Below, one piece after another: positions 29,304 through 63,728 of a stretch of DNA of 64,000 nucleotides (the stretch's first letter is position 1; each line of letters begins with the position of its first letter). The notes beneath the pieces are model-generated. The model was not told where the DNA came from, did not search any database, and was given only the letters and a program-made list of their open reading frames with translations. A program made the translations under genes and the position numbers. Origin of the DNA: a virus (lineage: Duplodnaviria; Caudoviricetes); the IMG/VR virus record IMGVR_UViG_3300023213_000432, positions 64,001 to 128,000 of that record; one strand, given 5' to 3'.

Positions 29304-30050
29304 ATGGAAACTAAAAAAGTATATTCAGTTTGGGCAGAATTAAAAGATGGATCAAAAAACGGTTATTGGCTTAATGATGCTGAGTGGAAATTTGAAAGTA
29401 TCGCAGATGCCCAAGATTGTGCGCAAAGATTTAACCGTTACTATCCTGACAGGAATTATCGAGCGAGAGAATATGAGGATTCGAAGTCATGAAGAAGTAT
29501 GCAATTTGGGTAGAATACAAAGATGGCTCGGCAAATGGTCGTTGGTTTCTGGAGTTTAATGGTCGTTTGGAATTTGACGATATCTCGAAAGCTAAAGATT
29601 ATGTCGCTCAACTCAACGAGTATTATGACGCTGTTCAGGTTCAAGTTAGAGAATGTGAGGAATTAAAATCATGAAGAAGTATGGAATTTGGGTAGAGTAC
29701 AAAGACAATTCAAAAAACGGTCGTTGGTATCTAAGTAATGGTCGGTTGGAATTTGACAATATCTCAGAAGCTAAAGATTATATCGCTTCACTCAACGAGT
29801 ATTATCACATCATACATTACCAAGTTAGAGAATGCGAGGAATTAAAGCCATGAAGAAATATGCAATTTGGATAGAAGACAAAGCCGGCTTAACAAATGGT
29901 AAGTGGTTTAGATCTCCCCATGCATTATTTGAATCAATCGCAGATGCTGAGAGACTTGCTGAACTTTCCAATTGCCAATCCGACAATTTCTATTATTATC
30001 AAGCGAGAGAGTACCAAGCGGATTACTGTCAGTCAATTACCAATGACTAA
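29304..30050 (+). repeat. Tandem array of 4 paralogous ~60-aa genes (29304-29492, 29489-29674, 29671-29853, 29850-30050)
   Basis: KKY..W.E.KD...NG.W....F..I..A...RE motif; the two middle copies are similar at DNA level; ATGA overlaps. Confidence 0.88.
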
Positions 30051-30386
30051 AGTCCTTGGCTTGTCGCTCATCCTACCATAAGCAGGAGATTATTTTTTAA
30101 TGGCAACAATAGGCTGATTGACAGCAGCCCTTAATAAAGTTTGGCGTTTCTAATAGCGACCTTTTAGAAAACCGTTTGCTTATTCAATCATAAATGATCG
30201 AGTTAAGTGCCTTCTAGGTCTCGATTCGCTAAACGTAGGATAATAATTTTCTAACGCATATCTTACCTCTTTCTGTATTTGGATAGCAAAAGATATATAA
30301 CCATCATTCTGAAGTTTTTAAGAAAAAAGAAAGGAAAAAGCAATTCCTCCCATGATTAAAATCATGGGCTTCTTTGCTAATAGATC
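30032..30386 (-). mobile_element. reRNA-only mini tnpB-type element (subfamily with TCAC target)
   Basis: Minus strand TCAC|GATCTATTAGCAAAGAAG-hairpin ... GGCTG..TCAATCAGCC ... TAATTGAC; removal restores CAG TGA stop overlapping a GTG start. Confidence 0.88.
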
Positions 30387-30782
30387 GTGATTCGTTCCCA
30401 AATTCTCACTTTATGTGTTGCTATTCGAAAAGCCTGCTTGAACATTGGTTTTGATAGAGATTTGAATGGAGCTTGTGCCATCGCTTCTTATTTTCTTCAT
30501 TATAAACTTCATAGTCTAAAAGTTAAATCAAAATTCATTCAAGGAGAATATGAGGGATTGGCTCATTGTTGGGTGGAAATTGGAAACGCTATTGTAGATA
30601 TTACTGCTGTTCAATTTAGCGTGGATACTGATTTTTTATTGGTTGATGCCTTGGATGCTCGGTATAATTCGACAGTTAAGAGATATATAAAGGATAATTT
30701 GAAATCCTGGCCCGAAAAGCAGAAACCAGAGAACTATTGCGGGACATGGGTAAATGATAAGTTGAAACTGGTTAGGAGATAA
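30387..30782 (+). CDS. Hypothetical protein, possibly papain/transglutaminase-like
   Basis: GACAIAS..HCWVEI..IVDITA (Cys/His/Asp pattern); GTG start. Confidence 0.55.
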   Translation: MIRSQILTLCVAIRKACLNIGFDRDLNGACAIASYFLHYKLHSLKVKSKFIQGEYEGLAHCWVEIGNAIVDITAVQFSVDTDFLLVDALDARYNSTVKRYIKDNLKSWPEKQKPENYCGTWVNDKLKLVRR

Positions 30783-31430
30783 ATATGGATTTAGTGGAAT
30801 TGGAAGACGCAATTCAGGACTTGTTGGCGCCTGACTTTGAAATAACGATAGATAAACATGGACAAGTAATTATCCTCACTGGACTTCGAATTGATGATGA
30901 AAGTGGAGAACTAGTGCCCTTTGAGGAAGAGGAATTAGAGTTGCCAGAAGATGAAGACGACGAAGATGAGGACGATTAAATTTTGTTTGTTATTTTTGAT
31001 GAGTTGTAATGATTTTAGCTTTGGTTCGATGGATTCCAATGCCAACTATCCTCGTCAAAAACCAACTACTATTGATGGACATTGCACCAATGATGAGCAA
31101 TGTGGGGAGGGATTAGTGTGTTGGAAACAAGGAGATAATTATGTGGGAGTGTGCGCCAGCGTAAGATAATTGTTAGGTATTGATTTTTCCACCATGAAAA
31201 CCAAAAAGAAACCCAAAATCCCACGCAATCCATATGTTCTTCCAGCTCGAAAACGTAACGGAGCAGGCTCTCATAAACCTAAAAAGCCTATTACTAAAAA
31301 ACAAGATATTAAAGAACGATTAGATGATACCTAACTGGGAAGATGTGGTTTGGTGGGGTTTGATTTGTTTGCTAGCTGGAGCTATTTTTGGATTGATGAT
31401 TTTTAGCAATAGGTAAAAGGAGAAATAGCC

Positions 31431-31841
31431 ATGCAGTATTGGTGGTTAGTTGGATTAACAATTTTAGGTTGGAGCGCCGGCGCGACCGCTTGTAAGGTAG
31501 CGACTAACTATGTGTCTCCCTTAATGCTTGCAGCAATTACGACAGGTATTTATGTTTTGCTGATGCCATTTCTGTTTGTCTTTATTAAGTTTGATCGAAC
31601 AGTTAATGCGGTTGGAATTGGTTATTCAGTGCTTGGCGCTTTGTGTATGGCGCTTGGTTCAGTTTTCTATTTTTTCGCTTTACAGAAAGGAGATGCGGGA
31701 ATCACCACATTACTAGCTGGGATTTACCCATCGCTGACTTTATTGTTATCATGTTTATTTTTAGGTGAGCCAATTACAGTAAAGAAGGTAGTAGGTTTTT
31801 TGGTAGTGTTGTTAGGATCGTTCATTTTGACGAGAGGATGA
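31431..31841 (+). CDS. EamA/DMT-family transporter
   Basis: Five TM segments; FFALQKG..YP..LL..LFLGEPIT..G; AAGGAG SD. Confidence 0.88.
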   Translation: MQYWWLVGLTILGWSAGATACKVATNYVSPLMLAAITTGIYVLLMPFLFVFIKFDRTVNAVGIGYSVLGALCMALGSVFYFFALQKGDAGITTLLAGIYPSLTLLLSCLFLGEPITVKKVVGFLVVLLGSFILTRG

Positions 31842-31860
31842 TGTGGAAAAGAGGAAATGA

Positions 31861-61785: not shown

Positions 61786-62433
61786 TTGAAATATTTTCTG
61801 GATTGTGAGTTCAATGAACGTGGATATGAACATCGGATCGAACTGATCTCGATTGCCTTGGTGCGAGAGGATGGCGAGGAATACTATGCGGTAGCTAGAG
61901 ATGGTTGGGATCCTTGCCATTGCGATGGTTGGTTAATGGCTAATGTTTTGCCGTATCTCTCCAAGGATGGCAGGGTGGATGATGTATCTGATTTGATTGT
62001 CCAAATGTATTATGGCATGAAAGTAGATCCTCGTATTCCTTGGGCAAGCAGAACCTGGATTCGAAATGGTATCCTTGATTTCATTGCTCCCGATGAACAT
62101 CCTGAGTTCATTGGATTTTTTTCCGATTACGACTGGGTGCTCTTTTCCCAACTCTTCGGGCGAATGGTAGATCTTCCTCCACACTTCCCCAAGTATTGTC
62201 TCGACATCAAGCAGATGATGGTTGCCAAAGGTCTCCAAAAGAGCGATTTACCCAAGCAAGAAGAAACACAGCATAATGCTTTGGCAGACGCTCGGCATAT
62301 GAGACGAATGTATCAAGCTATTGTAGAAAAGGCGTCAATTACCATCAGCACAAAGGCTGATGGCTTGTCCCTAATTATTGCTAATCGAGACATTAACTCC
62401 CCTGATTTACCAGATCAGGATCATAGTCGTTAG
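61786..62433 (+). CDS. 3'-5' exoribonuclease, Rv2179c/RNase AS-like (DEDDh); C-terminus extended by the mini element
   Basis: YFLDCEF; LISIALV; YDWV; HNALADAR; removing the element gives EKA*. Confidence 0.88.
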   Translation: MKYFLDCEFNERGYEHRIELISIALVREDGEEYYAVARDGWDPCHCDGWLMANVLPYLSKDGRVDDVSDLIVQMYYGMKVDPRIPWASRTWIRNGILDFIAPDEHPEFIGFFSDYDWVLFSQLFGRMVDLPPHFPKYCLDIKQMMVAKGLQKSDLPKQEETQHNALADARHMRRMYQAIVEKASITISTKADGLSLIIANRDINSPDLPDQDHSR

Positions 62434-62753
62434 GCTGATTGACGACAGCCTAACCTGGGTAGCATATAGCATCCAAGAAGTGTTGAGGTTCTCTAAATAG
62501 CGATCATAACCGTCTCTCTTTCCAAATAAAGGAAAGTGCCTTTAATCTCGATCATCTCAACTGGTCTAACCTATTGTTTTTTTATTCCTCAAAGGATTGA
62601 TTGAGGAAACCTGTTAACATTAACTCTTTCTGCTATAACTTAGATAGCAAAATAATATATAACCTTTATTTTAAGGTTGTCAAGAGAAAAAAGAAAGAAA
62701 AATGGCCATTCCTCCCATAGCACAAGGCTATGGGTATCTTTGCCTAAGAGATC
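62334..62753 (-). mobile_element. reRNA-only mini tnpB-type element (TCAT target), divergent interior
   Basis: Ends match the full tnpB element; internal TTGACA-16 nt-TATATT. Confidence 0.88.
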
Positions 62754-63017
62754 ATGAAAAAGTTTATCATCCATAGAGACTCCATTATTGAAGTGGAATG
62801 CACTCAACTCATGCCCGCTGACGATCCATCCGTGGCTTGGCTTCCCAAAGAGGAATATAAAGCTAGAATTGAAGCACCATCTACCTTGTTTGAAAAAGTT
62901 AATAACAAATTAGAAAAACCAAAATGGTATAGTTTTGCTTTTTACGATACTTTAGAACAAGCTAAAGAGGCAGCAGCCAGCGATATTCGAGTAGTGTTGG
63001 AACGTAAACAAGATTAA
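62754..63017 (+). CDS. Hypothetical protein
   Basis: Starts at the ATGA flank. Confidence 0.6.
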   Translation: MKKFIIHRDSIIEVECTQLMPADDPSVAWLPKEEYKARIEAPSTLFEKVNNKLEKPKWYSFAFYDTLEQAKEAAASDIRVVLERKQD

Positions 63018-63111
63018 ACATGGTACCAACTTCGTTGAAGAAGACATTAAAAAGCAAATAAAAATTATAATATTATGTTTATGAAAATTCAAGACATAGG
63101 AGATTAAACAA

Positions 63112-63728
63112 ATGACAACACGATTTCAAGTTGGAGATTACGTTTTGCGGATGGAAGCAGATTTTTCAAGCGGCATATTAGTGCATGGCGGTATTTATCA
63201 AATTGCCGGCGTTATTAATGATCCTCGGACTATTAAGTTGATAGGGTTTGGGGGAGTTGGGATGTCCATAGGTTTAAATTGATTAAATCTCCCTACGCTC
63301 AATCTTGTCCTTGTGGCATCCATTGGAGTCAATTACCAATGACTAAAGTCCTTGGCTTGTCGCTCATCCTACCATAAGCAGGAGGTTATTTTTTAATGGC
63401 AACAATAGGCTGATTGACAGCAGCCCTTAATAAAGTTTGGCGTTTCTAATAGCGACCCTTTAAAAAAACCGTTTGCTTATTCGATCATAAATGATCGAGT
63501 TAAGTGCCTTCTAGGTCTCGATTCGCTAAACATAGGATAATAGCTTTCTAACTCATCTCTTACCTCTTTCTGTTACATTTGGGTAGCAAAAGATATATAA
63601 CCACCATTCTTGGAAGTTTTTTAGAAAAAGAAAGAAAAAGCAATTCCTCCCATGATTAAAATCATGGGCTTCTTTGCTAAGAAGATCGTGAATGCCCTCA
63701 ACATATTCAAGAAGTAAAAGCTTTCTAA
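63112..63728 (+). pseudogene. SH3-like + CPCGI Zn-motif gene split by mini element 63328-63687, plus a G-run frameshift near 63250
   Basis: Removal joins SCPCGIHW|SECPQH in frame. Confidence 0.75.
63328..63687 (-). mobile_element. reRNA-only mini tnpB-type element (TCAC target)
   Basis: Near-identical to 30032-30386. Confidence 0.88.

Follow-up and report, generated by a model that had tools for sequence, protein, structure and literature searches.

We have analyzed the IS200/IS605-type elements in a stretch of 64,000 nt of phage DNA (Duplodnaviria; Caudoviricetes), positions 64,001 to 128,000 of the IMG/VR record IMGVR_UViG_3300023213_000432. This whole stretch is called the window. Plain positions refer to it, and a g prefix marks coordinates of the record, so that the window is g64001-128000. 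The record has 198,652 bases and is estimated to be 46% complete, and the window is densely packed with these elements. Our main finding concerns their TnpB nucleases: the amino acid at position 48 follows one base of the DNA guide which sets the insertion target. His is found with guide A (target TCAT) and Gln with guide G (target TCAC) in 72 of 76 proteins. We give about even chances to the view that this single residue of the recognition (REC) domain is a natural switch for the last base of the target-adjacent motif (TAM) in this TnpB clade, with His for T, Gln for C or A and Arg for G, and that at least eight flips of this residue have gone along with changes of one guide base. Taken as a whole, the explanation we favour combines old non-autonomous lineages, a guide rule and a residue 48 which reads the last TAM base, and it seems to us fairly probable.

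The features of the window on which this finding bears are the following:

36328..37579, minus strand: tnpB-only element; guide GATA 37561-37564, target TCAT 37580-37583
36350..37477, minus strand: TnpB, 375 aa, Derived clade (NADLN motif), RuvC residues D175/E256/D338 present, Cas12f-like fold
37334..37336, minus strand: His48 codon of this TnpB (motif L-H48-x3-Y52), candidate reader of the last TAM base
30032..30386, minus strand: gene-less IS200/IS605 mini-element, 355 nt; left guide GAAG 30369-30372, target TCAC 30387-30390
56029..56377, minus strand: mini-element of the same GAAG family; guide GAAG 56360-56363, flank TTAC 56378-56381, with a G·T wobble at guide position 1
63328..63687, minus strand: mini-element of the same GAAG family; guide GAAG 63669-63672, target TCAC 63688-63691
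54466..54846, plus strand: gene-less mini-element of the TCAT TnpB type; guide GATA 54482-54485, target TCAT 54462-54465
62334..62753, minus strand: gene-less mini-element; guide GATA 62735-62738, target TCAT 62754-62757

It is well established that the TnpA transposase binds hairpins at the element ends, that excision leaves no scar and that TnpB cuts the empty site. Since TnpB must cut the site left by excision, its TAM preference must follow the guide. In the explanation we favour, several old IS200/IS605 lineages (TCAT TnpB, TCAC TnpB, TCAT IsrB and TTAT TnpB) would have accumulated in a huge phage. A Y1 TnpA would act in trans and bind the end hairpins, and the four bases before the hairpin would pair with the cut site. 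Guide base 4 would set the last target base (A for T, G for C, T for A), with an occasional G·T wobble. One residue of a REC helix would do most of the reading of this base: His for T, Gln for C or A, and probably Arg for G. The window TnpB, which has His48, would guard TCAT sites only, and probably ignores the TCAC mini-elements.

Residue 48 of TnpB and the last target base

The window TnpB contains the OrfB_IS605 and zinc-ribbon domains, the RuvC triad and the NADxN motif expected in the Derived clade. Residues are numbered as in this protein, and the motif which includes residue 48 is L-H/Q-x3-Y52. In a first set of 27 related TnpBs, residue 48 is His in all 16 elements with guide A and Gln in 10 of 11 with guide G. 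The loci of a replication set were obtained through a protein homology search of about 1,050 genomes, and their ends were then called. The 81 proteins include 37 with His and guide A, 35 with Gln and guide G, three with His and guide G, one with Gln and guide A, and five with Gln and guide T, whose target is TCAA. The replication set alone gives 46 agreements out of 49, with six independent pairs pointing the same way and none the opposite way (sign test, p = 0.031). On the tree, 13 changes are needed for the guide and 12 for residue 48, and the starred branches of a 65-protein tree force at least eight changes of this residue. Residue 48 is the best of all alignment columns, with a value of 0.94 vs. 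0.74 for the next one. Among the proteins of that tree, it matches the guide (61 of 63) better than the actual flank (58 of 63), which is expected if some insertions are off-guide. There are natural sister pairs which differ in both features, L051/L254 (75% identical) and L296/L305.

A prediction was fixed beforehand for the two Gln48 proteins found among 120 close homologs, the other 118 having His48. For the first one, P0063, a cluster mate used in its stead has GAGT/TCAA, in agreement with the prediction, though not with its TCAC arm. The second one, P0074 (L351:470-1760), has no left end and is therefore uninformative; its right end is decayed, and this TnpB, which lies directly behind a tRNA-like sequence, is possibly domesticated. 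Two His48 controls have GAAA/TCAT, as predicted. An intact element found later in another phage (L360) has Gln48 with GAAG/TCAC, also as predicted.

A few TAMs of related proteins have been measured. AmaTnpB and other Derived TnpBs belong to the same clade as the window TnpB, with the NADxN motif and an N-K-x-x-L-Q-x3-Y helix (PMC10278001, PMC10691335). In the passages of PMC10278001 covered here, with the motif read by eye, AmaTnpB has Gln at the position equivalent to 48 and a TTCAC TAM, whereas the window TnpB has His and a TCAT flank. Orthologs in the same passages, also read by eye, have Gln with TTCAA and Arg with TTCAG (PMC10278001).

The modelled window TnpB matches AsCas12f best, with a template modelling (TM) score of 0.61 for the whole protein and a Z-score of 12-13 for the N-terminal half. 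A sequence search with an N-terminal profile matched no solved structure. In AsCas12f1, H72 bonds the last PAM (protospacer-adjacent motif) base and Y76 lies four residues further on (10.1101/2023.07.03.547593; PDB 8J12, 7WJU). These two PAM readers are spaced i, i+4, just like H48 and Y52 of the window TnpB. On the other hand, AsCas12f1 is a CRISPR-associated dimer with a TTR PAM, and its His bonds a G. As to the chemistry, the amino group of C or A could offer a bond to Gln, and the keto group of T or G could receive one from His or Arg.

The most serious alternative, which we nevertheless consider unlikely, is that residue 48 is a mere marker: These TnpBs would make no difference between TCAT and TCAC, or the choice would lie with other residues, so that the window TnpB could serve all mini-elements of the TnpB type. 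Four discordant proteins fit this idea, His being found in the G/TCAC elements L143, L335 and L337, and Gln in the A/TCAT element L230. Off-guide sites do occur, with GAAA/TCAC in L265, L073 and L017 and GAAG/TCAT in L034. The mini-elements and the window TnpB element have a 25-nt right-end motif in common, and an archaeal TnpB reportedly has flexible TAMs (PMC11043419). Against this alternative, little degeneracy is reported for TnpB TAMs, residue and guide need nearly the same number of changes and never go opposite ways in independent pairs, and no other alignment column comes close.

Besides the four discordant proteins, several points speak against a role of residue 48 as reader of the last base, or against our explanation in general. 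Some 21 ends were assigned manually once the residue had been seen, and the independent pairs on well-supported branches number only 6-8. In the passages of supplement 2 of PMC10278001 which we examined, no TnpB with His48 appears for which a TCAT TAM was measured. His48 is matched to H72 by fold and spacing rather than by superposing the structures residue by residue. Finally, no empty allele of any of the window sites was found in the public sequences searched.

The match between TnpA target and TnpB TAM is usually ascribed to "co-evolution", with no mechanism given; here one DNA base and one amino acid are named. If the switch is real, the last TAM base can be predicted from the protein sequence and adjusted, and two point changes would retarget transposase and nuclease together. 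The TAM range is a central limit of TnpB editors (PMC13639567). The guide rule and the natural variation of guides are known biology in a new host; the link with residue 48 is new here, as a hypothesis with moderate phylogenetic support. The open literature searched, with most subscription papers outside its scope, contains no report of a His/Gln switch or of a link between a residue and the TAM, which is weak evidence of novelty.

Guide and target in the record and in public sequences

The other elements of the window are:

1133..2499, minus strand: isrB-type element, GAGA/TCAT; its open reading frame (ORF) is on the plus strand and ends at 2503
46843..48206, minus strand: isrB-type element, GAGA/TCAT; ORF 47164-48210
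50403..51761, minus strand: isrB-type element, GAGA/TCAT; ORF 50719-51762
9379..9835, minus strand: isrB-type mini-element with internal deletion, GAGA/TCAT
11938..12386, minus strand: isrB-type mini-element with internal deletion, GAGA/TCAT
35327..35787, minus strand: isrB-type mini-element with internal deletion, GAGA/TCAT
3642..3897, plus strand: mini-element of a further family; left AAAG/TTAT (wobble at position 4), right GAAG/TCAC; parent tnpB g191260-192573
9013..9122, minus strand: right-end remnant, CAAG guide, TGGC terminus
58088..58133, minus strand: right-end remnant, CAAG/TGAC

Subterminal hairpins are present at both ends of the elements. The gene-less ones (349-461 nt) retain both ends and have no intact gene, only terminal tnpB or isrB codons, as in palindrome-associated transposable elements (PATEs). 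The isrB products have the RRXRR/PLMP N-terminus, about 350 aa and no HNH domain; Pfam finds RRXRR only. The Rfam search gave no match for an omega RNA across the right end.

Both ends were read for every element in the record, which has 22 left ends in total. All the guide and target pairs listed in a preliminary description of the window, made from the sequence alone, were found again. The pairing of guide and site is established in IS608, as is its use for retargeting (PMC5934647). The IS608 rule, in which guide positions 1, 2 and 4 pair with site positions 2, 1 and 4, accounts for the targets and is backed by covariation in viral and cellular sequences. Across the whole record, 18 of the 22 left ends are exact, three have a G·T wobble and one a mismatch. 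The exact pairs are GATA, GAGA or GAAA with TCAT, GAAG with TCAC, AAAG with TTAC, and AAGA or AAAA with TTAT. The wobbles are found at 56029 (GAAG/TTAC, an identical pair being present in L262), 3642 (AAAG/TTAT) and g154088 (GAAG/TCAT). The single left end which breaks the rule, g168612 (AAGA/TCAT), was probably mutated after insertion, since its sister copies read GAGA. The chance of a given three-base match at any of four offsets is 5-11% per element; the matches across the listed set are far beyond chance, though copies of a family are not independent.

Every right end, apart from the 9013 remnant with its TGGC, had been described as CAAG/TGAC. This holds for the elements then listed, but not for the overlooked mini-element 3642-3897, whose right end is GAAG/TCAC. 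Further right ends of the record (GAGC/TCAG, GAAC/TCAG and GAAG/TCAC) all conform to the rule. Ends whose guide begins with G mostly have AG as the two bases behind the left hairpin, and those whose guide begins with A mostly have AT, with exceptions in L350, L360 and L325; this is the pattern which the base triplets of IS608 would suggest.

Public viral contigs and cellular genomes were searched with a hairpin pattern which specifies neither guide nor target; the site caller fixes the first three target bases and leaves the fourth one free. Of the 61 distinct viral ends, 55 have a guide base 4 complementary to target base 4 (expectation 35.6; 0 of 100,000 shuffles), and the same is true of 28 among 30 viral element clusters. 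Among cellular ends the figure is 62 of 66 (32.6 expected), with A facing TCAT 40 times and G facing TCAC 20 times. Base 2 covaries as well, as shown by ends with GGGA/CCAT and GGGG/CCAC. Guide base 3 is unconstrained: A, G, T and C are all found with target base A. TCAT and TCAC are therefore separated by one guide base, A or G at position 4, and not by a four-base guide change as had been proposed.

A relaxed target has also been considered. GAAG ends might accept TCAC, TCAT and TTAC through wobble, with no distinct specificity for TCAC, and in the record they do adjoin TCAC twice, TTAC once and TCAT once. Nevertheless, left ends of the form GANG adjoin TCAC in 20 of 20 cellular cases and 9 of 11 viral ones, and the 56029 copy may owe its TTAC flank to a deletion next to it, as no Nudix C-terminus follows the junction. 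We regard this idea as very improbable.

The record contains a single tnpA (PF01797), outside the window at g45424-45816, whose own ends are AAAG/TTAC and GAGC/TCAG. Six of seven relatives at 67-76% identity have AAAG/TTAC left ends, and five of the seven have GAAC/TCAG or GAAT/TCAA right ends. The TnpAs which GANN/TCAN elements themselves carry have about 40% identity to that of the record. It is plausible that the record's TnpA acts in trans on the window ends, because the hairpins are alike; a TnpA of the host, or one in the missing half of the genome, is equally possible as the mover. A single transposase type behind all the subfamilies, as had been proposed, is only one possibility.

The window elements share with IS608 of Helicobacter pylori the subterminal hairpins, a four-base guide 5' of each and a target which can be reset. 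The autonomous element of the phage even has the left pair of IS608, AAAG/TTAC. Unlike IS608, the window elements have GANN guides, TCAN targets and CAAG/TGAC right ends, and they lack tnpA. Another close case is Geobacillus stearothermophilus. In the parts of 10.1101/2023.03.14.532601 covered here, its genome contains five families, ISGst1-5, together with gene-less mini-elements. Their guides covary with TAM and transposon-encoded motif (TEM), one TnpA moves all of them in trans, and the nuclease TAMs equal the flanks; these parts mention no residue-level determinant of the TAM. The likeness of ISGst1-5 and their PATEs to our case lies in the presence of several TnpB/IscB families and gene-less mini-elements in one genome. 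The host here is a huge phage and the additional nuclease is IsrB, not IscB; cross-mobilisation, which was demonstrated in Geobacillus, is plausible here.

Origin of the TCAC mini-elements

Exact-match searches with the ends of the TCAC mini-elements found nothing, and a looser pattern succeeded. The same GAAG mini-element is present in another phage, at a different site and again behind TCAC. This phage also contains the intact L360 element, with GAAG/TCAC ends and a TnpB of 379 aa which has Gln at position 48. Its left end is 91-94% identical in DNA to those of the three window mini-elements, and its last 107 bases 86-90%; the values for the 30032 copy, whose right end is CAAG/TGAC, are 91% for the left end and 89% for about 107 nt on the right. 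Only the last 32 codons of this tnpB survive in the record, and they are 75-78% identical to the parent over these 32 residues.

The L360 TnpB shares only 33% identity with the window TnpB. Its nearest relatives are GAAG/TCAC proteins, and the window TnpB falls in a purely TCAT clade. Subfamilies with different targets thus do coexist, as had been proposed, in the form of separate old TCAT and TCAC lineages, and the term "retargeting" does not apply between them. The weakest of the alternatives, a recent derivation of the TCAC subfamily from the TCAT TnpB element by guide mutation within this phage lineage, is largely refuted by these data: the left-end spacer and post-hairpin stretch are 82% like the 36328 element over 62 nt, but for both ends and the tnpB remnant the match is with another parent.

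The proposal that the TCAC subfamily needs a TnpB with a matching TAM stands in part. It has its own type of TnpB, with Gln48. "Needs" is too strong, because TnpB is dispensable for transposition, according to passages of PMC8612924, and the mini-elements keep only about 30 tnpB codons. No Gln48 TnpB is found in the record, which is 46% complete. The other TnpBs of the record were rejected as partners: one lacks the helix with residue 48, and two more are distant relatives with a TTAC or TTAT flank. According to the explanation we favour, the three GAAG mini-elements would descend from a Gln48 element absent from the record; TnpA could still move them, but probably with no nuclease in this record to restore them.

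The TCAC mini-elements look chimeric. Their middle part (about 55-245 in the 30032, 56029 and 63328 copies) has no match to the parent, and some of it resembles the 36328 and 62334 elements (75-82%). A 28-nt right-end remnant of this family, at g153912-154031, adjoins a putative tRNA-Ser gene, as judged by eye. A second TCAT tnpB, g171963-173183, is interrupted by a stop near codon 40, and the helix bearing residues 48 and 52 is missing from it.

Insertion sites and neighbouring genes

The flanks of the elements differ, so there is no target duplication, and removal in silico restores reading frames. Excision of the 54466 element restores a Nudix gene directly after its Nudix box, that of 36328 an open frame of 69 + 69 codons, and that of 63328 a short Cys-rich reading frame (CxCxxH..C). 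Excision of the 62334 element restores a stop/start overlap between two phage genes, the ATGA of its TCAT target (62754-62757). The 56029 mini-element truncates another Nudix gene, and its junction does not restore the C-terminus seen in homologs, so that this boundary is not confirmed. Outside the window, a TTAT-type mini-element at g165207-165459 interrupts a gene which we take to be GroES-like, and excision in silico restores its frame.

Nine of the 13 minus-strand TCAT elements lie exactly at the start codon of a gene, in comparison with a baseline of 12.9% of ATGA sites (p = 4e-6). These are 2500, 9836, 35788, 48207, 51762 and 62754 in the window, and g53828, g54796 and g173184. This placement arises because the TCAT target reads ATGA on the coding strand, and the excess probably reflects the survival of harmless insertions. 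The isrB stop codon either coincides with the TGA within the target ATGA or shares bases with this target as TAATG (2500-2503, 48207-48210, 51760-51764), and in these three cases it overlaps the start of the next phage gene. This overlap may keep the downstream gene translated after displacement of its ribosome-binding site.

Splicing in the manner of an IStron, which has a group I intron core and a terminal G in the host gene's sense, was rejected: read in that sense, the elements terminate in C, and they have no match to an intron in Rfam. Three collapsed elements with a single hairpin are present at g53783-53827, g54750-54795 and g154043-154088. They are 45-46 nt long, with a left-end guide on one side and a right-end TGAC on the other (decayed in g53783), and are likely scars of recombination between two similar hairpins. 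A free-standing gene for a GIY-YIG endonuclease with a helix-turn-helix tail is found at 31861-32727 of the window.

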